In this document: positions 1-54,260 of the stretch, one piece after another
How the letters are laid out: each line of letters starts with the position of its first letter
Numbering within the stretch: position 1 is the first letter of the stretch
Assembly (NCBI GenBank): GCA_031414595.1
Contig: JANNVX010000055.1
Location: 1-54,260 of the forward strand
DNA: 54,260 bases
Direction: 5' to 3'
From: Deinococcales bacterium
Lineage (GTDB): Bacteria > Deinococcota > Deinococci > Deinococcales > JAAFIG01
Notes under the pieces: model-generated
Seen by the model: the letters and a program-made list of their open reading frames with translations, nothing else
Told to the model about the DNA's origin: nothing
Databases searched by the model: none
Position numbers and translations under genes: made by a program

Positions 1-143
1 GGTGTTCGAGTGGATTGAAGTGTTCTATAATCGGAAACGGCTACACTCCACAATTGGCTATAAATCACCTGCTGAGTTCGAGGAAAACTGGTGTAAGGCT
101 CAAGTACCGACCTTCATGTCCACGACTTCTTGACAATTCACCA
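1..143 (+). mobile_element. Right end of an IS3-family insertion sequence: transposase C-terminus (2..133) and right terminal inverted repeat
   Basis: Frame 2 reads [27 protein letters not shown]...*, the typical IS3 integrase-core C-terminus. The sequence TGTCCACGACTTCTTGACAATTCACCA overlaps its end and ends in CA, like IS3 right IRs. Confidence 0.88.
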
Positions 144-238
144 ATTTAGTTCTTTGAGTTGACTGACCAGTTTATAATGCCGTTTCATAAACAAATCTGT
201 GTTCGGAATTTGTTCGAGTTGTCTTACCCATTGCTCAG

Positions 239-1651
239 TCATGGTTTGTGCCTCTTGCCTTTGGTCTTTTTGATTGGTTCAGGTTGCTCTTGTTTCACAA
301 AACCCCAGCCGCACCAATCCCCATACTCAAACTCGAGTTCGCCACTTGCCACAGCACGGCAGCGTTCGCCCAAGCGTTTAATTCTGGGTGATGGATGACG
401 CAAAAAATACGCCACAAACCCGCCCAATCCAGTATCTCGAGAAGCACTGCCTCGAGAAGTCGAAACATGGCAGTACAAACAATGCAGTAAGTAATCCGCA
501 TCGGGCAAATTTGGGTCGGCTGCCAAGTCGGTCAGTTCATCGAGCAAATTACCCCATTGCATTACCAAATCCCAGTTCATGGCGGGTTCACTGCGTCCAG
601 CATAAGAAAACCAATCTGCCATCTCGAGGTAAGCGGGTTTGTAGGGGTCTTGGAAAAACGAGGAAATTGCTTTTGGCTCGAGAACCGTTAAGAGTTTAAT
701 TCGCCCATGTTCCCAGCCAGTGATTAAGCGGTACTGCTGCCCCTTAATTGCCGTTTGCAGCGTGTACGGGTACTCGAGTTTGGCGGCTTCAAAGACACTC
801 AGGCAATGCCGCAAAAAATCCCATGAATCCATTTCAAATTCGGTTGGGTAATCGGGGTCAAACATCATCCAATCGAGTGCCAAAGTGCAGTCCTGAATTT
901 TTGCGCCAGTCACAGTAAAATCCATGTAAGTGGCAAAGTATTCGGCAGCCAGAACCACACGGTTGAGATTTGGGTATTTTTTAAGTTGCCCGAAAATCAC
1001 CTTTGATATTTCACAGTTGATCAGTTTATGCGTCTCGAGTTTAGCTAGGATATTCTCGCGCCAGAATTGGGCTTCGCTTGGGGTAAATAATCGCCCATGA
1101 TGCTCAAAAAGTTCAACATAACGCCCTGCATCGGACTCGAGGGCATTCAGGACACTGGGCAGAAAACCAGTTTGTTTTGCCACACCAAACTCGAGTTCAT
1201 ACTGGTCTTCGGTATAAACCTCAACACCGCTTGGAAAATCGGTTCGATTATCCGCGACAAGCCTTGCCACCTCGAGCAGTTTAAGCACGGTGCTGTGCGC
1301 CATGAAGGTACTGTCCTGCATGGTTGGCACAAATTTATATCTCCAAACCTGTTCCTCGAGCGGCTGCCCTCGGGTGCGTTCAAAATCCCCGCGCATTCGG
1401 ATAAATTCGGTTGCACTGGGGTAATCCTCAATCGGGTAGTACCACAACACGGTTGTACTGCGCTCAGATTTTAATTGCTCGAGATTCTGCGCTAACTCGA
1501 GGTTCTGCACCGCACTGATAAAATAACGCAGCATTTCATGACGTTCATGGTCGTCATGCTGACGCAAATGCAGTGTTTGGTGCTGCCGCTCGAGCAGCAG
1601 CCAAAAGCCATCTATTCGCAAGTAACCTTCGGTGTTTCTTGGCAGGGTCAT
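239..1651 (-). CDS. Multi-module hypothetical protein (modules X-Y-Z), putative poly-immunity protein
   Basis: 470-aa ORF with an ATGA overlap to the upstream gene. Paralogous to 1648..3261 (IDG[FY], STVLK, FG.A..TG..PS.L, LDWM...PDYP). Distinct C-terminal DPY..W...W.L....L..LAADP..P...Y.LHCLY...DWC module. Confidence 0.7.
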   Translation of the reverse strand: MTLPRNTEGYLRIDGFWLLLERQHQTLHLRQHDDHERHEMLRYFISAVQNLELAQNLEQLKSERSTTVLWYYPIEDYPSATEFIRMRGDFERTRGQPLEEQVWRYKFVPTMQDSTFMAHSTVLKLLEVARLVADNRTDFPSGVEVYTEDQYELEFGVAKQTGFLPSVLNALESDAGRYVELFEHHGRLFTPSEAQFWRENILAKLETHKLINCEISKVIFGQLKKYPNLNRVVLAAEYFATYMDFTVTGAKIQDCTLALDWMMFDPDYPTEFEMDSWDFLRHCLSVFEAAKLEYPYTLQTAIKGQQYRLITGWEHGRIKLLTVLEPKAISSFFQDPYKPAYLEMADWFSYAGRSEPAMNWDLVMQWGNLLDELTDLAADPNLPDADYLLHCLYCHVSTSRGSASRDTGLGGFVAYFLRHPSPRIKRLGERCRAVASGELEFEYGDWCGWGFVKQEQPEPIKKTKGKRHKP

Positions 1652-3261
1652 GATTTTTTCCTAAAAAACTGGGCGGTACGGTCAATACCAGCTTGCTTAA
1701 ACATACGTTCTAAATCTTGACCTTCAGTAAGGCTTTTTGGTTTAACCCGTTCGGCATGACCCAATTTAATCATTCTGTCATCCCAAACTAAAATTAAGCG
1801 CATTGGAATGGTCAGTGACTCAAAAATGATTGGCTCGATATTCTCCCGTTTAGCCGCCAAAAAAACTTGTTCGGCGGCGGCTAAAAAGTCATATGTAAAG
1901 GCATGACCATCACTTGGATAGTCTGGTGCATGAATCATCCAATCTAGAGAAACACCTAAGTCTCGAATGTCATGTTCCTTTGGCAAACTATAATCCTCCA
2001 GCCGAGTATCCGAAATTAAGTAACCATACAAATACTCGGCGTTATCTAAACAGGTTTTTAGGTTGACACAGTTGGCGCTTTTAAGCTGGTAATACACGGC
2101 TTCGTTCTCAAATTCGCGGTTTAGCAAACCCGCTCGAGACAATTCATCCAGTAAATTTGTTCGGGCAGACTCGAGGGTTGGCAAACCAGTTTTCAAAGCC
2201 GCCAAATACTCTGTGGCACACGCCTCGAGCCTCGGCAATAAGCTCGGGCGTAAGCCTGTGCTGGCAGCCCAACCAAAACGCAAATCCCAATCATCTTCGG
2301 ACAGCACTTCAACATCCCTAAGCAACAAAATGTTCTGGGAAAGCAGAATTTCTCGAGTCAAGCGCACCATTTTTAAGACCGTGCTGTGCGTCAAACAATG
2401 AAAGTCATACTGCCAAGTCGGTTGGTAAGCCCAAACAGGCTCTTGCACATCCCCAAGGCGTTCACACAGTTCATGCAGCGCAAAAAGTTGATGGTACTCG
2501 AGAAAATCCTCTGGTTTAATCTGAAATAGTTGCGCTCGTTCAAGGTTGTACCGCCAACCTTTTTGCAAGTGCATCCAAAAATCCTCGAACCGCTCTTCGT
2601 TCTGGACTTGAGTAAGAATAAAATCAATGATTGGGACATCTTTTTCCTTAGCATTATAACTTCTGACAATGCTTTCACGACTCGAGAAAATCGGTTGACC
2701 AGACTCAAATTTTACGTCTATGGTGTACCCATCTATCAGAAGCGAAAAAGCTGCATTGGTCATGCTTTTTGTGATTTCAACACCCTCGAGTAAAACATTT
2801 GAATCAGAAAACAACAAAGACTCCACCTCAATGATTTTCTGTACACTGCTTTGCGGCATAAATTGTTTGGCATGTCGCCAATCTCCACTGTTGACACTGA
2901 CATGCCAAATTGGTTCGTTCAGGACTTGCCCAGTGCGTTTTTGGTACTGCTCGAGTTCGGTGCTAAATTCGGGGTCAGAATGATATTCACTAAATTCGGA
3001 AGGCTGAATCAAATGCCCGTAAAAAACCCCTGAAATTGCCCAGCCTGTGCCGCTTGCAAAACCTTGGTGCATGATGGAATTCACATCATCAAAACTCGAG
3101 ATATGGGGTTTAGAAACATTCAACAAAAACTCGATGATGAGTTTGTACACACCTTCGGACAGCACAATTTTTTTGTTATCCTTCTCGAGCAGCAAAAGCG
3201 GGTAGCCATCCACCAAAAGGCGTTTGGTGATGTTCCAATCGGGATAATTAGGGTGTGTCAT
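1648..3261 (-). CDS. Multi-module hypothetical protein (modules X-X-Y), putative poly-immunity protein
   Basis: Long ORF. Start placed at ATG 3261 (MTHPNY) behind AGGTGG. Internal duplication: LLVDGY.../LLIDGY..., EPIW/EPVW, SSVQK/STVLK. Confidence 0.7.
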   Translation of the reverse strand: MTHPNYPDWNITKRLLVDGYPLLLLEKDNKKIVLSEGVYKLIIEFLLNVSKPHISSFDDVNSIMHQGFASGTGWAISGVFYGHLIQPSEFSEYHSDPEFSTELEQYQKRTGQVLNEPIWHVSVNSGDWRHAKQFMPQSSVQKIIEVESLLFSDSNVLLEGVEITKSMTNAAFSLLIDGYTIDVKFESGQPIFSSRESIVRSYNAKEKDVPIIDFILTQVQNEERFEDFWMHLQKGWRYNLERAQLFQIKPEDFLEYHQLFALHELCERLGDVQEPVWAYQPTWQYDFHCLTHSTVLKMVRLTREILLSQNILLLRDVEVLSEDDWDLRFGWAASTGLRPSLLPRLEACATEYLAALKTGLPTLESARTNLLDELSRAGLLNREFENEAVYYQLKSANCVNLKTCLDNAEYLYGYLISDTRLEDYSLPKEHDIRDLGVSLDWMIHAPDYPSDGHAFTYDFLAAAEQVFLAAKRENIEPIIFESLTIPMRLILVWDDRMIKLGHAERVKPKSLTEGQDLERMFKQAGIDRTAQFFRKKS

Positions 3262-4449: not shown

Positions 4450-6141
4450 TTACTTAGGCAAATCCACCACATTGAGTCTCGAGGCGCTGACAAACACGAC
4501 ACTCGAGCCGTTAGATGAGATTTGCCAATCATCGCCAGCCACTTTGCTTTGTAAGTCCGCGAGTTTTCGTTGTTTGCCAGTTCTTAAATCCCATTCGAGC
4601 AGCAGATGGGTTTGACTGCTTTGCATGGGGATAAATACCACCCGACTTGCATCTCTAAAACGGTACGAACCAAACCACGGCAGTTTTTGTTTTTGACCTG
4701 TACGGGTATTTAAGCTAAACATTCCATTTCTGGCTTGGCTGTCAAATGCCACGTAATACAAAACATATTGCCCATTTTTGGATAGGCTGATGCCCCGAAA
4801 ATTCAGGGCGCTCGAGAAGGTTTTTAAGTTCCTTGTTTTCAAATCAAGCTGCATTAAATCACGGTCTCGAGGGCTGGCTTTTTGCTTGCCGTTTAAGAGT
4901 AAGGCTTCTTCATCTAGCCAACCGCTCAGTCCACCACCGTACAAAACTGCCACGGCTCGAGTATTGCTTAAACCCAAACGCGGCTCGAGGCGTAAGGTTG
5001 CCACATAAACAGTGGTTTGTACCGTGTCAAAACGGCTGCTCTGACTTGATACCGTCCAAGCCACTTGCCGTTCAGACGGGGAGAACAAAACACTGGTGGC
5101 GGGAATACTGACCCGTTCGCCCGTAGCTAAGCGCTCGAGTAAAGTGTTTGCACCGTTCAAAATTGCAAATCGCTCGGATGATGAAAGCCGAACCACACTC
5201 GAGAATTCTCGTTTGGCAGAAGCCGAATTCTTGGTATCAATGCCGTAAATTGCGGCTGGTTCGGCATTGGGTTTATCAATAAACAGCACACGGCTCGAGT
5301 CTTTGCTCCAAAAAGGGGCGACACAACACCCAGAACTCGAGATCGAAAATGGTACACCCACCGGGTTGCTTGAGTCATCGCTTGCACTGTTATTACTTCG
5401 GTAAATTCGGCTCGGGTAGCTCAAAGTACGGTCATTAGCAGCCACTGGGTACGGACGTGCGTAATCATTCAGCAATGCCCCGCCGCGTCTGGCACTGGGT
5501 TGATCCTCTAAAGTTTGCCATTTACGCGGATTGTTTAGGTCGCGTTGATAACCACGTCCAAAACTCCCCAGCAACGCCAAGGTATTCCAATCGGCATTGA
5601 TGTAGCCGACAGGATTGAGGAAACGTTGATGGCTTCTATCCCGAATCTCGAGATGCAAATGTGGGGCGCTATAACAAGTCAGTTGCGAATCGCCTGAAAT
5701 CCCAATTTGTTGCCCTTTGCTGACGCGCTGCCCAATTCGTAAACTCGAGCGCACTTGCAAGTGTCCGTATAAACTCGAGAGATTCCCCGCATGTTCAAGC
5801 ACCAAATTGTGCGGGTCGCTGCCGTGTGAACCATCCACTTCTGAAACCACGCCATCACCAATTGCCACCACGGGCGTACCGCACTTGGCACTAAAATCCA
5901 TACCAAAATGAATCCCCTGTCCAGAGCGATAATCTGAATTCCGCCGCCGATACGCCCCTGTGGTATTGCCGTACAACTGCCCGAGCAGCCATGTGTTGAC
6001 ACTGGGTTGTCCCGCAAAAGGCAAAGAGAATTGCTTTGATGGTGCTGCAAGCTGCGACATCGGCAAGGCTGGCGCAGAATGCGATAAAGCAACTCCAAAA
6101 AAACCCAGTCCAAACAAAACCAGCACCACTCGAGGATTCAT
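4450..6141 (-). CDS. Secreted M23 metallopeptidase with a C-terminal TolB-like beta-propeller
   Basis: Signal peptide; HFGMDF, YGHL and PHLHLE zinc motifs; repeated WSKDS/FSPSE/LSKNG/ISSNG propeller blades. Confidence 0.9.
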   Translation of the reverse strand: MNPRVVLVLFGLGFFGVALSHSAPALPMSQLAAPSKQFSLPFAGQPSVNTWLLGQLYGNTTGAYRRRNSDYRSGQGIHFGMDFSAKCGTPVVAIGDGVVSEVDGSHGSDPHNLVLEHAGNLSSLYGHLQVRSSLRIGQRVSKGQQIGISGDSQLTCYSAPHLHLEIRDRSHQRFLNPVGYINADWNTLALLGSFGRGYQRDLNNPRKWQTLEDQPSARRGGALLNDYARPYPVAANDRTLSYPSRIYRSNNSASDDSSNPVGVPFSISSSGCCVAPFWSKDSSRVLFIDKPNAEPAAIYGIDTKNSASAKREFSSVVRLSSSERFAILNGANTLLERLATGERVSIPATSVLFSPSERQVAWTVSSQSSRFDTVQTTVYVATLRLEPRLGLSNTRAVAVLYGGGLSGWLDEEALLLNGKQKASPRDRDLMQLDLKTRNLKTFSSALNFRGISLSKNGQYVLYYVAFDSQARNGMFSLNTRTGQKQKLPWFGSYRFRDASRVVFIPMQSSQTHLLLEWDLRTGKQRKLADLQSKVAGDDWQISSNGSSVVFVSASRLNVVDLPK

Positions 6142-10895: not shown

Positions 10896-11954
10896 ATGAA
10901 GAAATGGCAATTAGGAGCAATTGGTGCGTTATCCCTTGGTTTACTCGGTGGGGTTTACTTGGGAGCAACTGCCCAAACAATGGATAAAGTTGTGGTCGGC
11001 GTAAGCTGGTCAAACTTCCAAGAAGAACGCTGGAAGACCGACGAAGCCGCCATCAAAAGTGCATTAGCCGCAGCAGGTGCAGAATACGTCAGCACCGACG
11101 CACAATCGAGCGCCGAAAAGCAAGTCAACGATGTCAACACCCTGATTTCACGTGGTGCAAAAGCAATTATTTTGCTCGCCCAGGATAAGGATGCCATCGG
11201 ACCAGCTATCGAAGCTGCCAAAGCTGCAAAAATCCCAGTCCTCGCGTATGACCGTTTGGTCGAAGACCCATATGCTTACTACTTGACCTTCGATAACGTT
11301 GAAGTTGGGCGTATCATGGCTCGTGAAGTCCAAAAAGTTCGCCCAAGTGGTAACTACGTCTTTATTCGCGGCGACCCAGGCGATGCCAATGCTACTTTTG
11401 TTTACAATGGTCAAATCGAAGTCCTGAGCGCTGCCATCAAAGCTGGACGAATCAAGAACGTTGCCGAACAAGCTACCGAAGGCTGGAAGCCAGAAAATGC
11501 ACAACGCAACATGGAACAAATCCTGACCCGTATCAACAACAAAGTTGATGCCGTCATGAGCAGCAACGACGGTATGGCAGGTGGCGCAGTTGCAGCCCTT
11601 GCAGCCGTTAAATTGGCTGGTAAAGTGGCAGTTTCGGGTCAAGACGGCGACCTTGGTGCGCTTAACCGCGTTGCCCTCGGCACACAAACCGTTTCGGTCT
11701 GGAAAGATTCACGCGCTCTTGGTAAGTCGGCTGGCGAAATTGCTTTGGCACTGGCTAAAGGCACAGCCCCTAGCGCCATCAAAGGCACAAAAGTCTTCAA
11801 TGGTGGTCCAAAGAAAGTCGCTATGAACTCGACTTTGCTTGCACCAGTTGGTATTACCCGCAAAAACTTGAACGTTGTCCTCGATGCCAAATGGATTTCT
11901 AAAGATGTCCTTTGCAAAGGTGTAAACAAAGTTCTCGTCGCAGTTTGTAAGTAA
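10896..11954 (+). CDS. xylF: D-xylose ABC transporter substrate-binding protein
   Basis: [41 protein letters not shown]; strong RBS GAGGAGG. Confidence 0.9.
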
Positions 11955-11966
11955 GCACTTAAAGCT

Positions 11967-11997
11967 GCGGGCGGATACGCACAGCGTGTCCGCCCGT
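11967..11997 (+). other. GC-rich intercistronic hairpin after xylF (mRNA stabiliser or partial terminator)
   Basis: GCGGGCGGATACGC-ACA-GCGTGTCCGCCCGT. Confidence 0.6.
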
Positions 11998-12019
11998 TTC
12001 AATTGAATTTGAGGTTTTT

Positions 12020-13249
12020 ATGCAGAACGCACAAACAAATCGCCCCAAGTCGTTGCTCGCCAGTCTGGGTGTGGATATTCAATTGCTCACCTTGATCTTG
12101 GCATTGGTTGCGGTCTGGGTTGGCTTTCAAATTTGGAGTGGGGGTATTTTTTTATCGCCACGTAACTTATGGACACTCACCGCCCAAACTGCTGTGGTTG
12201 GCATTATGGTTGGCGGGATGGTTCTGGTCATCGTGGCTCGGCAAATTGACCTTGGTGTCGGCAGTGTGCTTGGTTTTACCGCCATGATTATGGCGGTGCT
12301 GCAAGCCTCTGCCCCGATGGGTCTTAATTTACCGTGGGTACTAGCAATGCTGGTTGGGATTGCGGTTGGCGTACTGATTGGCGCGTTTAACGGCTACTTG
12401 TCGGCGTTCTGGGGTGTTCCAGCTTTTGTGGTCACGCTGGCTGGAATGTTGGTTTTCAGGAATGGCACTTTTAGCGTCTCGAGTTTTACAATTGCTCCGC
12501 TCGACCCGACTTTTCAGATTCTCGGTGGTGGAATCAACGGTTCGATTGGCGAATTATGGACTTGGGTTTTTGGCATTGCTGCCAGTTTACTGGTGGTTTG
12601 GCAAACGATTACTGGGCGTACCAGACGACAAAAAAATGGTTTTGATGTTCGTCCAATGTGGTCTGAAGCCTTGGTGCTTGGTGTAACTGTGGCTTTAATT
12701 CTGGCTTTTGCAGCTGTCATGAACAGTTATCCAATTCCAGGTACAGGTATAGATAACATTCCGGCGGTTGCCAGTGGAATGCCAGTGCCGACTTTAATTG
12801 CTTTGGCAGTGCTTGGCTACTTAAATTGGATGACCAGGGCTACCCGCTTTGGACGCTATATCTTTGCTATCGGTGGCAATCCAGAAGCAGCCAACTTAGC
12901 CGGAATTAACGTCAAAATGATGATGGTCTACATTTTTGCTTTAATGGGTTTTTTGACCGCCATTGCGGCGGCTGTACAAGCTGCCCGTCTGAACAGTGCC
13001 ACACCAACCGTCGGACGTGATTTAGAACTGACCGTGATTGCGGGTGCAGTGATTGGCGGCACGGTCTTGTCTGGTGGAAGCGGTACAATTCTAGGGGCTG
13101 CCCTTGGAGCGCTTTTAATGTCCAGTCTCGAGAACGGCTTGGGCTTAGTTGGGGTTCGTACTGAACAACAAAAAATTTACTTGGGTATTGTGCTGCTGGT
13201 GGCGGTACTTTGGAATGTGATCAGTACCCGTCGTAAAGGAGGCAGATGA
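12020..13249 (+). CDS. xylH: Xylose ABC transporter permease
   Basis: Hydrophobic; [33 protein letters not shown] motifs. Confidence 0.9.
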
Positions 13250-13998
13250 TGACCCCGATGATTGAAATGAACAACATCTCCTTGCGTTTCGGCGGAAATC
13301 AAGCCCTCGATGATGTCTCGGTCAATTTGTACCCCGGTGAGGTTGTGGGCTTACTCGGGCATAACGGGGCTGGTAAGAGTACCTTGATTAAAGTTTTATC
13401 GGGCGCATACCAAGCCGATTCTGGTGAAATTAAAATTGAAGGCAAGCATGTTGAAATTAAAAGCCCGCAAGACTCACAACGCCACGGGGTCGAAACGATT
13501 TACCAAACGCTGGCTTTAGCCGACAACTTGGACGCAGTTGCCAATGTCTTTTTGGGACGCGAGAAGGTCAACGGGTTTGTACTGTCCGAAGACGACATGG
13601 AAGTCGAAGCCCGTAAAGTGCTTGACCGCTTGCGGGTAAAAATCCCGAGTTTACGTGTCCCCGTGCAGAACATGAGCGGTGGTCAACGCCAAACGGTCGC
13701 CATTGCCAGAGCCGTCTATTTCAAAGCCAAAGTGCTGATTATGGACGAACCAACGGCGGCGCTTGGACCCGAAGAAACCTCGAAGGTCTCGGAACTCATC
13801 GCTGCCCTAAAAGCCGAAGGGGTCGGGATTTTTTTAATCAGCCACGACCTACACGATGTTTTTGATTTAGCAGACCGTTGTACAGTCATGAAGAACGGTA
13901 AAGTTGTCGGTACAGTCAACACCAAAGATGTGACCCAAGACCAAGTTTTGGGGATGATTATCGGTGGCGTGATGCCAGACGTGCCGAACGCCACATAA
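13246..13998 (+). CDS. xylG: Sugar ABC transporter ATP-binding protein (single domain)
   Basis: [26 protein letters not shown]. Confidence 0.9.
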
Positions 13999-17221: not shown

Positions 17222-20200
17222 TTAAGTGGCTTTGTGTACATTTGTAGTAAATGGAAATCCAGCTTCTTTGGCTTCGTTTATGGTTACTATTCCCCAGTAC
17301 ATTTGCTTTTCGCTTGGCGGTTCTTTATTGGCTGCACGGATACCAAGACTAAATGCTAATTTTCGTTGAAATGGATTGAGATAATTATTTTTCTTCGCCC
17401 ATGTCGCCAATTGAAACCACGTATCTGACGATAAACTCAGTAATTCTTTTTGTTCAGCAAGAGATGGTGTCGGAAGTTGTGGCTTCAGATGTTTGGGATT
17501 ATCACTTTTTGTGGCTCTAATACGTCGAGCTTGGGGTTTGTCGGGCTGAGTAGTAGGTTCGAGTTCTGGAATCTTTTCGATGTGAATAGTTTTTATTCGA
17601 GGCAAGAATGCTGGTGTGGGCTTTTTGGCTGTGATTACAGATTTCGATACCAAAATATCAGTTACAATTGTTTCAATAAGTTTCTCACGGACAATTTCAA
17701 GCTCTAATGCCAAAGAATCGGTTGGCGTTGTTTCGACTGATAATTTAGTCTTATTGTCTAACACAGTATTTTCTATACTTTCTTCTGGTTTTATAGCCAA
17801 AGAATCGTAAACTTGAGGTTTTATCCCAGAACGCTCAAGGGTTATCCATAAATCTTCTAGTGCTGCCTTTGGGTCTCGGTAAAAGGTGCTGCCACGCACG
17901 CGCCAAAATTGATACCCTGCTCGCTCGAGGTCACGTTGACGTGCCATATCAGATGCGTATTGTTCCGCACCATGCCATCGGTCTCCATCACATTCGACAG
18001 CAAGTCTGCCATTAAGACCTTCCACAATCAGGTCTATTCGATAATTACTGACTTCAAACTGAGGCATAACGCGGAAGCCTCGGCGGGTAATCTCGAGAAA
18101 AACTGCGACTTCAAACCAACTGTCAAAAGGCTCAGGTGCATTTTCATTTTTGTGGGGGTCACGTATTTTTTCTTCTAGCTCGGCAATTGAAATTCCAGCG
18201 ATTGAAATGGTTTCTACTCGAGGATTCTGACAATATGATAAGAATTTGTGGCGCAAGCAATCAGGTTTTAACTCGTGTGGCTCTACAGAATGGAATAACC
18301 ACATTTGCTCTTTAGCACGACTTGCAGCAACGTTATATCGTCTCTCAGCTTTTGCGTCGGTTTGGGCTGTTAGGCGCTTACCAGCTTCAGGTGCTTTAAC
18401 CATTGAAATAAACATCACATCTCGCTCATCGCCTTGAAAAGCGTAAGCATCACCGCAAACAATTTGTCGTTTTTCAATTTCAGCAATACTCAAATGCTCT
18501 CTTAGGCGTTGTTCTATCAGTCGTGCTTGAGCTTCACCCAGTAAGCTGATGACTCCAAAAGTTTTGCCTAGATACTGTGGGTCTTGATTGCACTCGAGAA
18601 TTTTTTGAATCACTGCATCTATTTCGGGTTGGTTGACCACATTACCCGACAAGCCTTTGTTATAACCGTCTCTGACAAAATGTGTACCAACCACTGGATT
18701 CAAACGATTTGCACCGAATTGTTTAAGCGGAATAAGTGGATTATCGCTGTAGCAAAGATTATTAGAGAATTGAATAATTTCCGGCATACACCGAAAGTGT
18801 TCAAGTAACCGAATCCGTCCCCCAAACAAGACCTCGGCGATTTCAAAATAACTGCTGTCGGCTGAACCAATGGTTTTAGAAATTGGCAAATCGTCAATAT
18901 GCTGTTCTCTTAGCGCTTCAACATCCGTGTGGTTCAATCCAACGTTGTCTGGTTTGATTTGTTTATCATCTCCAACCACGATAATCTTTTTGGCAATATA
19001 ATTCAAAAATAAGGCTTCGGGTCCTGATTGGCTGGCTTCATCAATAATCACCACGTCAAACAAATCTGGCGCAAGCTGAAAGGACTCAGCAACTCGGTAG
19101 AGTGGCATAATCCAAGCTGGAATTGCACCCTGAGCGCTCTGCATGGCTTTTCGGGCAGTATTGCGCCACTGACCAGCATATTTTCCTGTACCTTTTCCGA
19201 CTTTAATTGTGGCTTGCTTCCATTCTAGTAATTTTTGGCGTTGTGCCTCGGTCATTCTATCCAAACAAGCAGTCCACGCTTTGAGTTCGGCAATTTTTAA
19301 CAGGGTAGTGCGAATCTCTTTACGGCAATGCTCGAGGTTATCACGTTGTTGTTTATCACGGCTTTGATTAGTTATTTGCTCAAACCATTCTTGGGCAACC
19401 CACCAATTCCAAGCTGCCTCAAAGTGATTCAAGTGTTTTTGCCAATACTCGAGTGACCCTGTTGACGCAAGTGCAATTGCCAATTTCGGGATATGGACTT
19501 GAAGGACTTTTAGTTGCTCCTGACGGCTGATATACTTTTTTTGACGCTCGGCAAAATCTTTGAGGTTTTGGTAATACATTTGATACTTGTCTGGGTTATT
19601 TTGCAAAATAGCTTCGTAGAGACGTTTTATTAGTGGATGGGCTGTCTCGAGCTTCGTTTCTTGTTCAAGCTGCTCTACTAATGTTTGAAAATGGTGTTTC
19701 TCTGAATCAAAATTATCTGCACATACCAACTGTTCCGTTTGGGCTTGCTCCAAGCGTTGACCATGATCTTTTCGGTATTTTAGTTCTGACATTATTTGTT
19801 GTTGTAGCTGCACTATTTCTTTGATGCTTTTCCAGTCGGGTATAGCGATTTGCGGCAATTCTAAAAAAATCTTTTTAACAGTCTGCAAAGGCGCTTGTAA
19901 CCCAATGATTTGTTTGAGGTGCTGATAAAACGCAGTCAATTGTATCCAACGCTGTAATGGCGTTCCGATTAGAGGTTTGGCAAAAGAACTCCAAGCTCGT
20001 TCAATTTTTTGAAGAGGTTCTTCAACTCCAATTAGGCGAATCAAATCACGCAATTTTTCTTTTGTATCACATGGTTTACCAACAATCCGAATCTCGGTAA
20101 CGTACCATGCTTTTTTCATCCAACTTGGACGAAAAAAAGCAACGCCAAAAGTTTTTCTATTTTCTAAATGGGTTAATAATGCCTTGGCATCTTCGCGGAT

Positions 20201-22228
20201 AGCTTGGATATCCATCTGTTCTAAGCCAGTCATTCGCAAATTATCGTACCAGCGTACCTCTGACTCGAGTACCGCAATGCCTTGGGTTATTTCCCATAAA
20301 GCAAACCAGAGTTGTCCTCGACTCAAAAAAATATCATTTACGGCTTTGACTGACCATTCAAAAGTATCTGTAGAAATAGTGGTGTAGACCGTAATCCAAG
20401 TACCTAATGCGTTTTGGATTCTTTCTAACTCGGTGCTGGTTGATTCTTGCCAAGCTGACTTTAGGGGTTGTTGGGCTGCCTTTAGTTTTTCTTGTGAAAC
20501 CAAAAGGTTTTTCTGACTTTCCGAAAATCTATTTAAGACCGTAAATATCGCCGTTTTTGTCGGAATCTTATCCAAATCTACAATGCTAAATTTCTCGAAA
20601 AGCTGACCTTGTAAAAGTGCAGGGTCGTACAGACTATCCAAAAGCAACAATAGAGTCGCGTTGGAAATTGGGGCTTTCTTAGAATTTTTTTGCCAAAATT
20701 CTTGCAGCCATTTGTGATTAATTTCTGCTTCAGATAAAGCTGCACCGATTTTCTGGGCTGTACCAAAATAACCTTCGCTTGGTTGAAATTGTTTTGTTTC
20801 AAGTTCACGAAAATCTTGTAAGTCCCGCAGAACAAGTGCTTCTTGGCGATATAGCTGATCAAGAGTAGTTTCGAGTTTTTGGAGGGTTTCCAAGTCTTGT
20901 TTTGCCTTGCGCTGGCTGTAACGCTGAGTGATTCCAGCCACAGAGGTCTCGAGGTCATTTCTGGCATGGCTGCCATCACCAAGATTCAAAACGCATAATG
21001 CCTCTATTTCTTTTGGAAATTTATCACGCAAAACACGCAAGGCTCGAGCAGTATGGCTGGTGACTAATATCCGATGTCCTGTTGCCAGTAAGTGCGAAAC
21101 AAGATTAACAATTGTGTGCGATTTTCCTGTACCGGGTGGTCCTTGTACAAGCACACCTTGTCTTGAATGTAATTTTTCAATAATCTCGAGCTGCTCTGAA
21201 TTAGCGGGAAGCGGAAAATAAATCTGTTCAGGTATGCCCTCGACTCCTAAGCTATTATTGTCATCAATAACCTCTACAATTCGACGTACACTTAACGGGG
21301 TCTCTGGTATATCAGCGCTTTGTTGGGCAATAAAATCAAGCATTTGTGTTAAGTCCCGTGATGGGCGTTTGCGGAGAATAATCGCAGGTGCTAAATGAAT
21401 TCGTGGTGCATTACCCACAATTTCCTGACGTTTTAGTGTTTTATCGAATACTGCTTGACTACCTTGCAAATGAATCCAACTTTGCAAAACAATTTCGATA
21501 TTGGGGTGCTGCCAATCCCCAAGTACATCTGCTAATTGTGTTTCAATATCACGTTGTGCGTCGCCTGAAATACGTTGATTCATCTCTAACATATCTTGTT
21601 CAAGCTGAACTTTTGCAGTATCAAGATTTACCCCAACAATCACATTACCTTGGGCTGCATCGAAATTCATTGCCGCAGGAATAGTTAATAAATGCCTTGC
21701 AACTCGAGCATTAGCCGCTTGCCAAGTCAAATAGCCGAGACCCAAAACTACTTCATATGTTTCACCGAGTCGCTGTTGCTTCTGGAATATTGAATATAGA
21801 ATATCAAAGACTTTTTTGGCATTTTGCCTTGCTGTACGTTGATTCCCCCAAATGTTTATTCGTTGAAAGTCATGGACAGGATTAAGCCCAAAACCAGCGC
21901 CATGACTTAAAGGAGCTTCGAGGGCTACCGCTTTAGGCAACTTGTTTTTTTGAGTCAGTGCTTGGCGACGCAAAAGCACTTGCAAACTTTTCGCTACTGG
22001 CTTGCCTTCAATTCTTTTTGGTATTTGTACTGATAACCAAGTCTCGGAATCTGACCCTGAACCCCAGTAATTTTGAATTTCGCTAACATTAGGAACATCC
22101 GCCAACCAAACCACTTCATCGTCATCAGAGAGAGTCCGCTGCGGTTTTGAACGTAATTGGGTAAATTCACTAAGAAAGCGAAACAAACGCTGTGTTCGGT
22201 CTCGAGCAAGGTCTGACGAACTCTGCAT
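17222..22228 (-). CDS. Large SF1 (Upf1/DNA2-like) helicase fused to a Vsr/MTES_1575-like PD-(D/E)xK nuclease
   Basis: VLVQGPPGTGKS, IIDEASQ, VGDDKQ, EHFRC, FQGDERD, NVAASRAK; nuclease motif FDSWFE...YRIDL...LAVECDGDRWH. Start placed at ATG 22228, 7 nt after TAGCAT. Confidence 0.9.
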   Translation of the reverse strand: MQSSSDLARDRTQRLFRFLSEFTQLRSKPQRTLSDDDEVVWLADVPNVSEIQNYWGSGSDSETWLSVQIPKRIEGKPVAKSLQVLLRRQALTQKNKLPKAVALEAPLSHGAGFGLNPVHDFQRINIWGNQRTARQNAKKVFDILYSIFQKQQRLGETYEVVLGLGYLTWQAANARVARHLLTIPAAMNFDAAQGNVIVGVNLDTAKVQLEQDMLEMNQRISGDAQRDIETQLADVLGDWQHPNIEIVLQSWIHLQGSQAVFDKTLKRQEIVGNAPRIHLAPAIILRKRPSRDLTQMLDFIAQQSADIPETPLSVRRIVEVIDDNNSLGVEGIPEQIYFPLPANSEQLEIIEKLHSRQGVLVQGPPGTGKSHTIVNLVSHLLATGHRILVTSHTARALRVLRDKFPKEIEALCVLNLGDGSHARNDLETSVAGITQRYSQRKAKQDLETLQKLETTLDQLYRQEALVLRDLQDFRELETKQFQPSEGYFGTAQKIGAALSEAEINHKWLQEFWQKNSKKAPISNATLLLLLDSLYDPALLQGQLFEKFSIVDLDKIPTKTAIFTVLNRFSESQKNLLVSQEKLKAAQQPLKSAWQESTSTELERIQNALGTWITVYTTISTDTFEWSVKAVNDIFLSRGQLWFALWEITQGIAVLESEVRWYDNLRMTGLEQMDIQAIREDAKALLTHLENRKTFGVAFFRPSWMKKAWYVTEIRIVGKPCDTKEKLRDLIRLIGVEEPLQKIERAWSSFAKPLIGTPLQRWIQLTAFYQHLKQIIGLQAPLQTVKKIFLELPQIAIPDWKSIKEIVQLQQQIMSELKYRKDHGQRLEQAQTEQLVCADNFDSEKHHFQTLVEQLEQETKLETAHPLIKRLYEAILQNNPDKYQMYYQNLKDFAERQKKYISRQEQLKVLQVHIPKLAIALASTGSLEYWQKHLNHFEAAWNWWVAQEWFEQITNQSRDKQQRDNLEHCRKEIRTTLLKIAELKAWTACLDRMTEAQRQKLLEWKQATIKVGKGTGKYAGQWRNTARKAMQSAQGAIPAWIMPLYRVAESFQLAPDLFDVVIIDEASQSGPEALFLNYIAKKIIVVGDDKQIKPDNVGLNHTDVEALREQHIDDLPISKTIGSADSSYFEIAEVLFGGRIRLLEHFRCMPEIIQFSNNLCYSDNPLIPLKQFGANRLNPVVGTHFVRDGYNKGLSGNVVNQPEIDAVIQKILECNQDPQYLGKTFGVISLLGEAQARLIEQRLREHLSIAEIEKRQIVCGDAYAFQGDERDVMFISMVKAPEAGKRLTAQTDAKAERRYNVAASRAKEQMWLFHSVEPHELKPDCLRHKFLSYCQNPRVETISIAGISIAELEEKIRDPHKNENAPEPFDSWFEVAVFLEITRRGFRVMPQFEVSNYRIDLIVEGLNGRLAVECDGDRWHGAEQYASDMARQRDLERAGYQFWRVRGSTFYRDPKAALEDLWITLERSGIKPQVYDSLAIKPEESIENTVLDNKTKLSVETTPTDSLALELEIVREKLIETIVTDILVSKSVITAKKPTPAFLPRIKTIHIEKIPELEPTTQPDKPQARRIRATKSDNPKHLKPQLPTPSLAEQKELLSLSSDTWFQLATWAKKNNYLNPFQRKLAFSLGIRAANKEPPSEKQMYWGIVTINEAKEAGFPFTTNVHKAT

Positions 22229-31574: not shown

Positions 31575-32377
31575 ACGCCGGTAAACGCTCCAAAACCGCC
31601 ATCTACGCTAATAATCGTGCCGGTCACAAATTTGGACTCACTCGAGACCAACCATAAGAGGGCGCTTTCTAAATCCTCTGGGTTGCCAAATCTGCCTTGT
31701 GGGGTGTGATTTAAGATGCTCTGGGCGCGTTCGGTACTGCTGCCGTCGGGATTAAAAAGCAGATATTTATTTTGTTCGGTGGAAAAAAACCCCGGGGCGA
31801 TGGCATTAACCCGCACCCCAGCCCCGTACTCGAGGGCGAGGTGGGTGGCTAACCACTTGGTAAAGTTTTCAACCGCAGCTTTGGCGGCGGCATAACTGGC
31901 AACTCTGGTCATTGGGCGTTCGGCTGCCATCGAGGAGATGTTGATGATGCTACCAAGTTTGGCTTCGGCAATATCCTTGCCAAAGACCTGACTAGCCAAG
32001 ACCGTGCCATGAAAATTGAGGTTCATTACATACTGCACAGCTTCCATGTCTATTTCAAAAAAGGTTTGGTCAGGGGCGCTGCTGGCACTCGGGCGGTTGC
32101 CACCAGCCCCATTGACCAGAATACTGATTTTGCCTAAATCGTTGTGAATCGCGGCTTTGGTGGTCTCGAGCGAATCGCGGTCAAGCACATTGGCGGCATA
32201 GGGGTAAACCGTGTAGCCCTGCTCGAGTAGGCAGGCGGCGGCAGCCTTGGCACTTGGCAGGCTGCTGCCAAGCAGCGCAACTTTAGCTCCGACTCGAGCC
32301 AGCGCGGCACAAAAATGCTTGCCGAGTACGCCACTGCCACCTGTTACCACTGCGATTTCTTGACTTAAATCGGTCAT
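31571..32377 (-). CDS. SDR-type D-mannonate oxidoreductase (UxuB-like)
   Basis: TGGSGVLG, NGAGGN.P, Y.AAKAA..NFT.WLA, APGFF; lies next to uxaC. Start placed at ATG 32377. Confidence 0.85.
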   Translation of the reverse strand: MTDLSQEIAVVTGGSGVLGKHFCAALARVGAKVALLGSSLPSAKAAAACLLEQGYTVYPYAANVLDRDSLETTKAAIHNDLGKISILVNGAGGNRPSASSAPDQTFFEIDMEAVQYVMNLNFHGTVLASQVFGKDIAEAKLGSIINISSMAAERPMTRVASYAAAKAAVENFTKWLATHLALEYGAGVRVNAIAPGFFSTEQNKYLLFNPDGSSTERAQSILNHTPQGRFGNPEDLESALLWLVSSESKFVTGTIISVDGGFGAFTGV

Positions 32378-33730: not shown

Positions 33731-34681
33731 TTGATGTTGACCCCAACTGCATTACCAACAGCAAAAAAATCAGTCGTCTCGAGTCTGGTCTATGCCATCT
33801 GGCAGCACCGTACCTTGTACCTGATGCTGTTTCCGGGTCTGCTGTATTTTATTGTTTTTCGTTACGGACCACTGTGGTACACGCAAATTGCTTTTAAGGA
33901 TTTCAGTCCTATCCTTGGGGTTGAAGGCAGCCCGTGGGTTGGTTTTAAGTATATTCTCGAGTTTTTTAATTCCTATTATTTCTCGCAACTGATGACCAAT
34001 ACCCTAATTATCAGTCTGGCAAAACTGATTTTTGGTTTACCATTAGCGATTATTCTAGCCATTGCTTTGGCAGAAACACGTTTGCGGTTTTTGCGAAGCT
34101 CGGTACAAACCATTACTTATTTGCCGCACTTTTTATCATGGATTGTGATGGCTGGTATCTTGCTGGCACTTTTTTCGCCGTCCGAAGGCTTGGTCAATAA
34201 AGGCATGGGCTTAGTCGGTCAAGACCCAATCGCTTTTTTAACCGACCCACGTTATTTTGTGGCTATTTTGGTTGGCTCAGATGTCTGGAAAGAAACAGGC
34301 TGGAGCGCAATTTTGTACTTAGCTGCTTTAATGTCGATAGACCCATCCTTATACGAAGCCGCCGCCATGGATGGCGCAACCCGTTGGCAACGTATTTGGC
34401 ATATTTCGCTACCTGGAATGCTGAATGTGATTGTCTTGGTTACACTACTGCGTTTGGGCGGAATTTTAGATGCTGGCTTTACTCAAGTTTTCGCGCTTTA
34501 TTCGCTGCCTGTCTACAGCGTTTCAGACATTATAGACACATGGGTTTACCGCCAAGGGATTCAAAATTTCCAACTTTCGGTGGCGGCGGCAGTCGGCTTA
34601 TTTAAGGGCGTAATTGGTTTAATTTTGGTTGTGGTAGCAAACCGCATTGCCCGTAAAGTGGCTGGAACAGGGTTGTACTAA
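33731..34681 (+). CDS. Carbohydrate ABC permease (LplB/YteP-like)
   Basis: SPWVG, YLPHFLSW, WKETGW..ILYLAAL..ID..LYEAA.MDGA. Confidence 0.92.
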   Translation: MMLTPTALPTAKKSVVSSLVYAIWQHRTLYLMLFPGLLYFIVFRYGPLWYTQIAFKDFSPILGVEGSPWVGFKYILEFFNSYYFSQLMTNTLIISLAKLIFGLPLAIILAIALAETRLRFLRSSVQTITYLPHFLSWIVMAGILLALFSPSEGLVNKGMGLVGQDPIAFLTDPRYFVAILVGSDVWKETGWSAILYLAALMSIDPSLYEAAAMDGATRWQRIWHISLPGMLNVIVLVTLLRLGGILDAGFTQVFALYSLPVYSVSDIIDTWVYRQGIQNFQLSVAAAVGLFKGVIGLILVVVANRIARKVAGTGLY

Positions 34682-34711
34682 GTTTTTTACTCGAGAAGAA
34701 GGAGGTGTAAA

Positions 34712-35575
34712 ATGGTCAAATCATTTGGGTCTCGGGGTGATAAAGTCTTTGATTTTGGACTGAATTTCTTTTTAATCTTGGTTTTAATCGTCACAATTGT
34801 GCCGTTAAGTTATGTGGTGATTGTTTCGGTCGCTCCTTTGGTGTTGCCCAATCAGCCGCGTTCACTGCTTTCTTTTGCGGCTTACGGCGAATTATTGGCT
34901 CAGCCAAGTTTCCTTAGAGCCGCTTTTAACAGTCTTGTTCTTTTGGTTGGTGGCGTGACCCTGAATATGGTTTTAACCACCCTCAGTGCTTTTGCGCTCT
35001 CGAGGAAATCCTTACCCGGACGTGGCGTTATTCTGGCATTTATTCTGTTTACATTTTTATTCAATGCTGGGTTAATTCCGCAGTTTTTGCTGATTAAAAA
35101 TCTTGGCTTACTCGATTCTCTGCCAAGCGTGGTGCTTCCTGGTGCAATCAGTGTCTACAACTTACTGATTATGATTGCCTTTTTGCAAAACCTGCCAGAA
35201 AGCCTCGGCGAAGCAGCCCGCATAGACGGAGCTTCTGAGTTCCAAGTGCTTTGGTACGTGATGCTGCCGCTTTCTAAACCAATCCTTTTAACTGTTGGAC
35301 TTTTTTATGCGGTCAATAACTGGAATGAGTTTTTCTTGCCGATTTTATTCTTATCCGACCGCGACCTGATGCCTTTACCCGTTGTGTTGCGCGATATTTT
35401 ATCGTCACTCAATTCTGCCGAGTACGTGGACGGCAACCGTCAAGCCAGTATCTCCTCGCCTGAAGCCCTAAAAATGGCGGCGGTGGTACTAACCACCCTG
35501 CCAATGTTGATGGTCTATCCGTGGATTCAAAGCCATTTTACCAAAGGTGTGCTGCTTGGAGGGGTTAAAGAATGA
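34712..35575 (+). CDS. Carbohydrate ABC permease (LplC/YtcP-like)
   Basis: FNAGLIP, EAARIDGAS, LFYAV.NWN, YPWIQ.HFTKGV..GGVKE. Confidence 0.92.
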   Translation: MVKSFGSRGDKVFDFGLNFFLILVLIVTIVPLSYVVIVSVAPLVLPNQPRSLLSFAAYGELLAQPSFLRAAFNSLVLLVGGVTLNMVLTTLSAFALSRKSLPGRGVILAFILFTFLFNAGLIPQFLLIKNLGLLDSLPSVVLPGAISVYNLLIMIAFLQNLPESLGEAARIDGASEFQVLWYVMLPLSKPILLTVGLFYAVNNWNEFFLPILFLSDRDLMPLPVVLRDILSSLNSAEYVDGNRQASISSPEALKMAAVVLTTLPMLMVYPWIQSHFTKGVLLGGVKE

Positions 35576-35704
35576 TTTTTCTTCTCGAGCCAAAAAAATA
35601 CACTTCTCGAGCTACTTTGATGACCGAACGGGGGTTTGGATGAAATGAAAGTTTTTGCAACGAATTGGCAAATTTAGAAAAACGCATCACCCAAGGAGTA
35701 GATT

Positions 35705-37261
35705 ATGAAACGTTCAAGTAAAAAAGCAGTTTTTGTCAGTGCCATCACGGCTTGTTTAGCCCTGAGTGGCTTAGCACTCTATAGCTCAGCACAAAACGCC
35801 GTGACCGATTTAACCGTCTGGTTGCCAGCCGGTTCGCCAGAAGCTGGTCCGCCACCCGCCGACTGGGAAGTCTATAAAATTGTCCGCGAGAAGCTGAACA
35901 TCAATCTAAAACTGGTGGTTGCCCCAATTGGTTCAGAAGGCGAGACCAAACTTGGTGCATTAGCCGCCGCCAACGACTTACCAGATTTATTTGAGATGCG
36001 TAACCGCAACCAGTTCTTTCAATTTGCTGCCCAGAAGCTCTTGGGTAACGCCAAATCAACCCTTAAATTTATGCCATTACGCACTTTAGAGCGTTATAAA
36101 AACGACGACCTGAATTTATTGGCAACGGTGGATGGCACAATGGTTGGCTTACAAGAACCTCAACTGCTCTACAAGCGTACATCGCTTTTAATTCGTCAGG
36201 ACTGGTTGGATAAACTTGGACTGAAAACCCCAACTACCCTAAACGAATTCATGACTGTCGCCAAAGCCTTCACCGAAAAAGACCCTGATGGCAACGGTAA
36301 AAACGATACTTACGGCTGGGGTATTAACTCCGACTGGACACCAGGCGGATTCGATGTGATTTACGGAGCTTACGGCGTTCAAGGCAACTGGAATTTAAGC
36401 AGCGCCACTAACTTTAAGCTTAATGCTCGAGAAGCCAATTACCGCAAAGCCACTGAGGTTGCTAACAGTTTCATTGATGCCAAAGTTGTAGACCCAGATT
36501 GGGCAACCCTAAAAACCAATGATTTCCGCAACCGTTGGAAGCAAGGCAAGTACGGAATTTTTGCCGAGGATTTCTGTGCCGCGATGTGCAGCTTTAACTA
36601 CGCCCCATTTGATGCCAGTAACCCAACAGGCGCACTAAAAACCTTGCAACCACCCGTCGGACCAGATGGCAAATCCTCGAGTGGTACTTTTGCGGCGGCG
36701 GGTACACTCTTAACTGCCTCGAAAAAAGCGATTGATGCTGGCAAGGGTCAAGCTATTGCTAGGTTGCTCGAGTGGGCAAATAGCGGCGAAGGGTATTACG
36801 CCTTAGCCTTTGGCAAAAAAGGCATCAATTACAACTTTGATAAGAACGCGATTATCACACTGGCTGGGATTGAACCCGCCAATGCCTATAACACGGCAGG
36901 CTTCGCAAAATTCACGCAAATGCGTAACCTTGCCTTAAATGGTCGTCCGCGTGAATTGGCTGCCCGTTACCCAATTTTCAAGACCAGCAACGGACGCACC
37001 ATCACCCCAATGGATTTCTACCGTGCTTCGTTTGCCACACCGCACACCAACATCATCAGCACTTTCTTGATTAAACCAGCCAGCAACCAAGCCGATTTAG
37101 ACAGGTACATCAACGAGAACCGTATTCAATTCCAACTTGGTCAAAAACCAATCAACGACACCACTTGGAATCAATTTGTAAACGGCTTAAATAGCCTTCG
37201 TGCCAACGAATACGAAGCTACCGCCAAGCAAACCCTGATTACGGCTGGATTTTTGAAGTAA
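35705..37261 (+). CDS. Carbohydrate ABC substrate-binding protein (LplA-like)
   Basis: Signal peptide; IRQDWLDKLGLKTPTT..EF..VAKAF..KDPDGNGKNDTYG. Confidence 0.9.
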   Translation: MKRSSKKAVFVSAITACLALSGLALYSSAQNAVTDLTVWLPAGSPEAGPPPADWEVYKIVREKLNINLKLVVAPIGSEGETKLGALAAANDLPDLFEMRNRNQFFQFAAQKLLGNAKSTLKFMPLRTLERYKNDDLNLLATVDGTMVGLQEPQLLYKRTSLLIRQDWLDKLGLKTPTTLNEFMTVAKAFTEKDPDGNGKNDTYGWGINSDWTPGGFDVIYGAYGVQGNWNLSSATNFKLNAREANYRKATEVANSFIDAKVVDPDWATLKTNDFRNRWKQGKYGIFAEDFCAAMCSFNYAPFDASNPTGALKTLQPPVGPDGKSSSGTFAAAGTLLTASKKAIDAGKGQAIARLLEWANSGEGYYALAFGKKGINYNFDKNAIITLAGIEPANAYNTAGFAKFTQMRNLALNGRPRELAARYPIFKTSNGRTITPMDFYRASFATPHTNIISTFLIKPASNQADLDRYINENRIQFQLGQKPINDTTWNQFVNGLNSLRANEYEATAKQTLITAGFLK

Positions 37262-44875: not shown

Positions 44876-44879
44876 GCCC

Positions 44880-53641: not shown

Positions 53642-53741
53642 TTTGGCACTTGGTCGGCAAGAATAATCTATAGCTTCGAGAAACGCTTTTTGGTTCACAA
53701 CAAAACTTCTCGAACACACTTTTATGTACTACAATCTAGTC

Positions 53742-53978
53742 ATGCCGATGATTGAACTCTCCCAAGACAACCTAAGCCGCTTAGATGCGATTCGTCAAGC
53801 TCGAGGCATCAGCCTTGAAGACGCACTCGAGCAAGCCTTAGAAGCTGCTCAGTACGCCCATTTAGATGAGGCAACGCGGAATGCAATTCTGAGCGCCCCA
53901 ATCACAACTTGGGAAGAAATGATGCAAGATACTGACCCTGACGCGCCAGAGTTTGACATTCCAGAAGGTCTAATGTGA
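53742..53978 (+). CDS. Putative type II antitoxin (ribbon-helix-helix-like N-terminus, acidic tail)
   Basis: IELS......LD.I...RGIS.E..L..AL; coupled to a PIN fragment. Confidence 0.6.
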   Translation: MPMIELSQDNLSRLDAIRQARGISLEDALEQALEAAQYAHLDEATRNAILSAPITTWEEMMQDTDPDAPEFDIPEGLM

Positions 53979-54100
53979 CTCCAATTTCTGGGGCGGATGC
54001 TTGGATTGCGGCTACCGCTCTAAGCTCGGGTATACCACTTCTGACGGCTGATAAAAATGATTTTCTGGGTGTGGATGGTTTGAAACTCCTAAACGTTTAA
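53975..54100 (+). pseudogene. vapC: Truncated PIN-domain (VapC) toxin, C-terminal 41 aa only
   Basis: VTPISGADAWIAATALSSGIPLLTADKNDFLGVDGLKLLNV* has the D..IAATA and T.D..DF motifs. The N-terminal DT motif is missing. Confidence 0.75.
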
Positions 54101-54260
54101 GGTTTAGTTTTGAAGTACAGGTCGTCCTATGGAATGATTCCGCATGGGTCAAAAAACTAGGTAGAAACGGCGACAATTCCGTCTGTGAAAACAAAAAAAA
54201 GATTCACCGTCTCCGTCCGCTAGTTTAGCCTGCCCATTCACGACTTGTAAAGACTACGCA

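Follow-up and report, generated by a model that had tools for sequence, protein, structure and literature searches.

CTCGAG in the window and in its genome

The stretch of DNA analysed here (the window) is the entire 54,260-base contig C55 of a Deinococcales genome, G000 (4,488,778 bases in 120 contigs, 47.2% guanine plus cytosine (GC), 94% complete). G000 proteins with Taq-exonuc and DUF3809 domains are consistent with its placement in Deinococcota. The palindrome CTCGAG recurs through the genes and spacers of the whole window (1..54260, 300 copies, 5.5 per kb). Dinucleotide-preserving shuffles of the same sequence yield 7.01 ± 2.78 copies (100 shuffles, maximum 14, 0/100 reaching 300), an excess of 43-fold. 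An initial annotation of this DNA had counted about 39 sites by hand in 1-5000 where about 1 was predicted; the count is exactly 39 and composition predicts about 1.1. The genome-wide hexamer comparison proposed there gives 23,235 copies in G000, one per 193 bases or 5,177 per Mb, at an observed/expected ratio (O/E) of 23.9 over base composition, and ranks CTCGAG first among all 4,096 hexamers. The density is at least 2.3 sites/kb on every one of the 120 contigs, and each 5-kb window holds at least three sites. Against a baseline of 500 kb from a motif-poor genome of similar GC (G151, 50.1%), CTCGAG is 18.9-fold more frequent, the top ratio among the 4,060 hexamers compared. CTCGAG is thus a genuine highly iterated palindrome (HIP), and a DNA-level force creates and protects its sites in all resident DNA.

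Per open reading frame (ORF), the density in the window ranges from 0 to 12.8 sites per kb. The genes that matter below are the following.

4450..6141, minus strand: M23 peptidase gene, 14 sites in all three codon frames (frames from the ORF end coordinate)
10896..13998, plus strand: three sugar ABC-transporter genes, motif-poor, with 0, 2 and 0 sites (0.6 per kb)
16652-17200, plus strand: Uma2-family putative endonuclease gene, the densest in the window (12.8 sites per kb)
17222..22246, minus strand: helicase / MTES_1575 nuclease-domain gene, 1,674 amino acids, GC 41.9%, 2.6 sites per kb (half the genome average)
22894..25320, minus strand: gyrA, 10 sites, used in the cross-lineage codon alignment
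33731..37261, plus strand: two permeases and a solute-binding protein, motif-poor, with 2.1, 1.2 and 1.9 sites per kb

The initial annotation held that Leu-Glu codon bias does not explain the motif, and named a null preserving codon and dipeptide usage as the test that could overturn the enrichment. As stand-ins for the genes of G000, with no gene caller, we took 3,765 ORFs that do not overlap and encode 100 or more amino acids (86.7% of the genome). Density is 5.15 sites/kb inside these proxy genes and 5.36 outside, in keeping with the high density described earlier for genes and intergenic DNA alike. All three codon frames are used (CTC-GAG 11,888 sites, or 59% of coding sites; xxC-TCG-AGx 3,915; xCT-CGA-Gxx 4,206), as had been pointed out for the M23 gene, where computation from the ORF end returns the same three frames (4984 CTC-GAG, 5336 xxC-TCG-AGx, 4866 xCT-CGA-Gxx). 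Synonymous codons were then permuted within each proxy gene, which keeps the protein, its dipeptides and its codon usage. Ten such shuffles gave 1,966.5 ± 26.5 coding sites (maximum 2,015) against 20,009 observed, a 10-fold excess. This null is conservative, because the codon usage of the genes is already inflated by the motif. Taken together, the codon shuffle, the parity of coding and non-coding DNA and the comparison with G151 show that the enrichment is not an effect of codons, dipeptides or composition, and the enrichment persists under the null that had been proposed against it.

Spacing of the sites in G000 is near Poisson (coefficient of variation 0.99), on all 120 contigs. Short gaps are depleted (728 below 20 bases vs 1,581 expected), gaps of 50-200 bases are in excess, and 30 gaps exceed 1.6 kb where 5 are expected. 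Density is flat over gene starts (4.3-6.0/kb) and rises slightly within 60 bases of stops (5.5-7.0/kb). The preference for flanking bases is weak, with the exception of CCTCGAGG, which is depleted at 178 sites. Pairs separated by a single base (CTCGAGNCTCGAG, start-to-start 7) number 101 in G000, and spacings of 8-14 only 17-54 each.

The product of the gene at 17222-22246 (minus strand) combines superfamily-1 helicase domains with an MTES_1575 nuclease-like domain. Because of its low GC and half the usual motif density, we regard it as probably an acquired defence-type gene; motif density flags recently imported genes in the motif-rich genomes. The window also carries short dispersed repeats. 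One of 125 bases at 28957-29081 is 97% identical to a sequence on contig C75 and is also found in further genomes of the genus, and others lie at about 44720-44752, 44844-44886 and 41879-42012. Two repeat elements of 33-43 bases are present in many copies over G000, G001, G003 and G005. A comparison of the window with Rfam gave no match.

Distribution and turnover of sites

We scanned 364 Deinococcota genomes for CTCGAG (genome sizes are rounded; one unpublished genome, G325, is counted in the totals, but no conclusion depends on it). In the family of the window, CTCGAG occurs at 4.3-6.8 sites/kb in all 19 genomes, which represent five genera, while the GC of their gyrA loci spans 42% to 64%. 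The relatives were assembled from metagenomes in several projects and are recorded as 'Deinococcales bacterium', and the motif-bearing genomes of the family include a single-contig chromosome of 5.09 Mb (G013). The motif is therefore neither confined to one contig nor an assembly artefact, two of the outcomes that the initial annotation had named as fatal to its claim. In the largest genus of a second family, each of 111 genomes has at most about 0.36 CTCGAG/kb, and in one of them, G020, the word lies 10-fold below the codon-shuffle expectation (100-kb sample). Another genus of that family holds G149 and G150, with 8.6 and 7.0 sites/kb, and their congener G151, with 0.30. In a GyrA tree (one gene, midpoint root) G150 and G151 are sisters with support 100/100, apart from the window's family. 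The codon-corrected excess, estimated from samples of 38-100 kb (that of G150 includes methylase loci), is graded between genomes.

G150: 9.8-fold over codon shuffle
G013: 5.4-fold
G189: 4.4-fold
G175: 3.3-fold
G032: 3.0-fold
G263: 2.7-fold
G151: 1.1-fold
G022: 0.8-fold
G020: 0.1-fold

A weaker codon-corrected excess is found in two further families, and one word is therefore enriched to varying degrees in four families. The distribution needs either repeated gain or, if the trait is old, repeated loss. The pair G150 (7 sites/kb) and G151 (0.3), together with the graded enrichment, offers natural contrasts that suit a comparative gene screen. Several of the moderately enriched genera are represented by genomes that are 99-100% complete in few contigs; we infer that these are isolates, so bench tests should be possible. 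CTCGAG density could also aid the binning and classification of metagenomic contigs of the clade. Viral contigs were scanned for clusters of three CTCGAG spanning some 80 bases (at least 126 stretches); no phage of the clade was recognized among the matches listed, the densest of which are high-GC repeats that also carry GAGCTC.

CTCGAG reshapes the proteome of motif-rich genomes. Relative to the frequencies of the two residues, Leu-Glu has an O/E of 2.23 in G000, vs 0.98 for Glu-Leu, and 11,888 of the 19,811 Leu-Glu pairs are encoded as CTCGAG. CTC accounts for 65% of Leu codons ahead of Glu and 8% elsewhere. In the genome samples the O/E of Leu-Glu is 2.0-2.25 in the strongly enriched G150, G013 and G032 and 1.05-1.36 in G151, G020 and G022.

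To measure the preservation of sites, 11-20 kb of the window was aligned with each of five congeneric genomes. Where DNA identity is about 80%, CTCGAG survives at 67-77% of its sites, compared with 31% for hexamers in general; where identity is 92%, survival is 87-94% vs 67%. Leu-Glu pairs written as CTCGAG are retained in 43/56 and 29/39 cases in two comparisons, those in other codons in 3/24 and 0/17, and all in-frame dicodons at 32% and 31%. Elevated identity (0.82-0.96) falls on exactly the six bases of the motif, with flanks at about 0.62-0.89. Across six genomes of the genus, 49 CTCGAG columns are fixed and 82 variable (columns with at least four genomes aligned).

The sites also turn over. 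A codon alignment of gyrA from 12 genomes contains 29 distinct CTCGAG columns with lineage-specific placement, several of which alter amino acids; the count is 15 in G150, most of them in places peculiar to that genome, one in its sister G151 and none in G020. Three positions in the window illustrate the turnover.

24742..24747, minus strand: young gyrA site (alignment column 573), CTC-GAG (Leu-Glu) in G000 and one near-identical relative, CTG-GCA (Leu-Ala) in the others
24418..24423, minus strand: gyrA site of the closest relatives only (alignment column 897), ATC/ATT-GAA (Ile-Glu) in the others
31737..31742, minus strand: position without the motif in G000, CTGCTG there vs CTCGAG in G005 and G003, within ORF 31571-32428

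On the plus strand at 24742, G000 reads CTCGAG and G005 TGCCAG. At 31737-31742 three adjacent differing bases exchange serine codon families (AGC/TCG) between identical flanks. New CTCGAG sites thus still arise lineage by lineage, some of them via amino-acid changes. In pairs of close genomes, hexamers that read CTCGAG on one side only differ by at least three bases in 7/20 and 4/14 cases, vs 8% of all differing hexamers. Identical alternative alleles at CTCGAG columns recur in non-sister genomes among the six of the genus. The allele sharing and the multi-base differences would fit a spread of alleles by recombination. The six-base conservation footprint, the lineage-specific gains and the excess over the codon shuffle uphold the broader proposal of the initial annotation, that a process acting on DNA creates or retains the hexamer.

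Candidate mechanisms

We tentatively favour molecular drive through DNA exchange, by uptake or recombination, as the most likely mechanism. Some inherited part of the Deinococcota machinery for taking up DNA, or for recombining it and processing heteroduplexes, would prefer DNA bearing CTCGAG; motif-bearing alleles would spread among relatives by natural transformation and homologous recombination and be lost less often, and the motif density of each lineage would reflect the strength of the preference. We rank exchange first because the same word recurs within one phylum, ComEC is present in every near-complete genome checked, alleles are shared among relatives, the spacing is structured at short range, no conserved methylase was found and recent work ties HIP1, the cyanobacterial counterpart GCGATCGC, to transformation. 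The motif-poor gene blocks of the window and the depletion of gaps below 20 bases also point towards exchange. Deinococcota are widely naturally transformable. The link between HIP1 and natural transformation comes from recent reports (10.1101/2024.09.10.611283; PMC13756078, as far as their available text goes).

Several observations weigh against drive by exchange. No uptake or recombination factor was identified, ComEC (PF03772) being the competence gene checked; it occurs in 12/13 genomes, the exception being only 58% complete, and is equally present in enriched and unenriched genomes, so that it was rejected as a discriminator. A six-base palindrome at 5-7 per kb is unlike the uptake sequences known elsewhere. 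Preservation of sites is equally compatible with selection or biased repair. Ordinary recombination between old alleles predicts the same allele sharing and multi-base differences, in what is a small sample of 11-20 kb per genome. Finally, the motif-rich genomes are rich in methyltransferases and the motif-poor G151 has almost none, which favours the principal competing explanation.

That explanation, which we consider possible but doubtful, is methylation-linked maintenance as modelled for HIP1 by Elhai: CTCGAG would be methylated without an active cognate restriction enzyme, and methylation-directed or sequence-specific mismatch correction, or selection on a hemimethylation signal, would convert near-sites and repair lost ones. 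HIP1 and the alternate cyanobacterial HIPs are indeed accompanied by methyltransferases for the motif, according to the portion of Elhai 2015 at hand (PMC4390886). G000 has about 25 DNA methyltransferase genes, and the motif-rich G150 has many, whereas in its sister G151 four families gave no match and the fifth, D12, a single marginal one. We compared five Pfam families (PF00145, PF01555, PF07669, PF02384 and PF02086; orthologues at ≥ 38% identity and ≥ 60% coverage) between five motif-rich genomes, G000, the complete chromosome G013, G011, G150 and G032. No orthologue group in these families is common to all five, a result with which non-orthologous enzymes of one specificity are still compatible, because specificity is unpredictable from sequence. 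This absence of a detected conserved methyltransferase weighs against models based on methylation only.

Individual methylases fared no better as determinants. A MamA/CamA/M.BseCI-like enzyme of G000 (contig C89, 559 amino acids, Eco57I-type) has counterparts in only 3/18 family genomes (E ≤ 1e-10) and is missing from the complete chromosome G013. G013 and G032 have a single C5 methylase each, at 27-33% identity to one another and to the five of G000, and neither has a PF01555 (N4/N6) gene. The C5 methylase gene of G013 is followed by an overlapping, co-oriented ORF that is probably its nuclease. XhoI-family endonucleases (PF04555) are absent from G000 and from all 19 family genomes searched. 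They occur with adjacent methylases in 7/364 Deinococcota genomes, the neighbours being PF01555 proteins or, in G356, of the Eco57I/TaqI_C type. In that genome, which has a moderate CTCGAG excess, an intact methylase gene is followed directly by an XhoI-family nuclease gene whose reading frame is broken by stop codons (C1:1094188-1097598); the methylase may be a CTCGAG enzyme in the course of becoming an orphan, and the arrangement illustrates a route by which such an orphan could originate. G000 has no close homologue of the XhoI-linked methylases of the phylum: identities are 24-28% over most of the length, at the level of motifs, and the other matches reach 35-50% over about 60-100 residues of shared motifs. 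The initial annotation had suggested a search for a methyltransferase like that of XhoI, PaeR7I or TaqI lacking its nuclease; in G000, comparison with the XhoI-linked enzymes yielded only such distant matches.

Traces of a coupled repair activity are equally sparse. Vsr (PF03852) gave no match at E ≤ 0.1 in G000, the one genome searched (94% complete). A very-short-patch (VSP) repair signature is absent among the single-base neighbours of CTCGAG, which are mildly depleted at most, with frequencies 0.33-1.01 times those in G151, and none of the transition neighbours is emptied; the deamination products (CTTGAG/CTCAAG 0.69, TTCGAG/CTCGAA 1.01) lie within the bulk of hexamers. MutH-like nickase genes are sporadic (3/11 genomes) and were discarded as the factor. 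An orphan CTCGAG/TCGA methyltransferase coupled to repair, the first example offered by the initial annotation, thus finds no support in shared orthologues, in Vsr or in the neighbouring hexamers.

Two further observations concern other gene families. A D12-class methylase gene of G000 adjoins a MutH/Sau3AI-like gene (C1:27108-28231); the two are a probable GATC restriction-modification pair, which agrees with the O/E of 0.14 for GATC in G000. The Uma2 family (PF05685), scored on the best nine matches per genome, was considered as a correlate and rejected: it has matches in 32/32 genomes of the unenriched genus g9 and none in the enriched G032, and is present in many copies across most of the phylum without tracking CTCGAG.

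An architectural role seems unlikely to us. A nucleoid-associated or chromosome-organizing protein would bind CTCGAG, under weak selection at thousands of sites, as Xu et al. 2018 proposed for HIP1 in the available part of their text (PMC5861425). Genes and spacers are equally dense, sites are not positioned at the level of genes, they are conserved, and their depletion below about 20-base spacing is as expected of a protein footprint. However, selection at each site would need to prevail, at thousands of positions, over changes of amino acid, no candidate protein was found, and counts per 5 kb in G000 are over-dispersed rather than even (standard deviation 6.4 vs 5.1 for Poisson).

The rise of CTCGAG is accompanied in G000 by a purge of the other palindromes. 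Of the 64 hexamer palindromes, 34 have an O/E below 0.1 and 58 below 1; the median is 0.08 for the other 63 palindromes vs 0.84 for non-palindromic hexamers. The 4.49 Mb contain 152 GGCC (O/E 0.011), 2 TGCGCA, 3 CGATCG, 3 GACGTC and 6 GAGCTC, and all four RTCGAY words are close to absent. The median for the other palindromes is likewise low in G150 (0.15) and not in its sister G151 (0.88), a 2.3-Mb genome with near-normal palindrome frequencies. The purge could suggest that CTCGAG is a by-product of restriction, the sequence drifting into the sole tolerated palindrome where nearly all others are forbidden. We judge this very improbable. With 4,032 non-palindromic hexamers available to take up the sequence, exclusion alone cannot lift one word 19- to 24-fold. 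Palindrome avoidance also occurs without enrichment in G020 and G022 (medians 0.44 and 0.34), and G032 is enriched despite mild avoidance only (0.64).

Artefacts of coding or of assembly, such as a preference for certain Leu-Glu codons, a recurrent peptide, a family of dispersed repeats or mis-assembly, have only the majority share of the CTC-GAG frame in their favour. They are refuted by the excess over the protein- and codon-preserving shuffle, the equal non-coding density, the near-Poisson spacing on 120 contigs and the 18 other assemblies, a complete chromosome among them.

A further reading, which we put forward as a possibility rather than an expectation, is that CTCGAG marks Deinococcota DNA as 'self' at the level of the phylum. 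The mark would be read by one inherited uptake, recombination or repair factor whose strength varies between lineages, and its rise would be tied mechanistically to the palindrome purge. If so, the mark would be extreme in an uncultured freshwater and glacier family and in one of two sister lineages elsewhere, of intermediate strength in several genera with cultured members, and missing or even inverted in the largest genus. It would then represent a second independent origin of the HIP phenomenon, testable in culturable relatives.

Comparison with known systems

The DNA uptake sequences (DUS) of Neisseriaceae and the uptake signal sequences (USS) of Pasteurellaceae are non-palindromic words of 9-12 bases, present at about 1 per kb, for which uptake bias has been shown experimentally. 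CTCGAG resembles them as one short word in genome-wide excess that would be maintained by a drive rather than by coding and that reshapes peptides. Like them it is common to related species, is scarce in newly acquired DNA and occurs in genomes with competence genes (ComEC). It differs as a six-base palindrome at 5.2 per kb with a weak flank preference.

In Escherichia coli, very-short-patch repair by Dcm/Vsr produces an excess of CCWGG and a depletion of its T-neighbours, a small effect. The likeness is that a repair bias is able to enrich a methylated palindrome. For CTCGAG, however, the effect is 24-fold, G000 is without a Vsr gene and no neighbour is specifically depleted.

Genomes normally avoid restriction sites rather than accumulate them. 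Restriction-modification systems of the XhoI/PaeR7I type, including the predicted MamA system of Mycobacterium smegmatis, recognize the same word (PMC7526240, in its accessible text). They differ from the situation described here, where the nuclease is lacking in the 19 family genomes and G000 has no close homologue of the linked methylases.

CTCGAG is a word of the same class as HIP1 and the alternate cyanobacterial HIPs. A literature search, with the supplementary files of HIP papers outside its coverage, found no publication on CTCGAG hyper-abundance, and the available text of Elhai 2015 (PMC4390886) contains neither CTCGAG nor Deinococ. As far as the accessible parts of the two main accounts describe them (Elhai 2015, PMC4390886; PMC5861425), the cyanobacterial words are also short GC-rich palindromes, tens-fold over expectation, that occupy all gene frames and spacers; their sites are conserved above background, they are clade-wide with exceptions among close relatives, and their function is unexplained. 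The word itself differs, an 8-mer in cyanobacteria vs a 6-mer in Deinococcota, and CGATCG, as noted above, is nearly missing from G000. CTCGAG is also denser, at 5,177 per Mb vs 300-2,700 per Mb for HIP1, and, unlike HIP1, it goes together with the loss of nearly every other palindrome. In almost all cyanobacteria with HIP1 dmtA is present and CGATCG methylases are almost coextensive with the motif (values and statements from the part of PMC4390886 at hand), whereas no conserved methyltransferase was found for CTCGAG in the five families compared. The HIP class has been delimited by an abundance 15- to 300-fold over composition (Xu, Lawrence and Durand 2018, PMC5861425, available portion), and CTCGAG shows three features of that class: hyper-abundance, presence within and between ORFs, and conservation above background. 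Methyltransferases for the motif or its core throughout the clade, and a periodicity of 10-90 kb along the chromosome, are further traits of the class. For three decades HIP1 has lacked an explanation and has passed for a quirk of cyanobacteria; that an unrelated phylum has a different, denser word shows the phenomenon to be general. The CTCGAG of Deinococcota is therefore an independent system in which explanations of HIPs can be tested.

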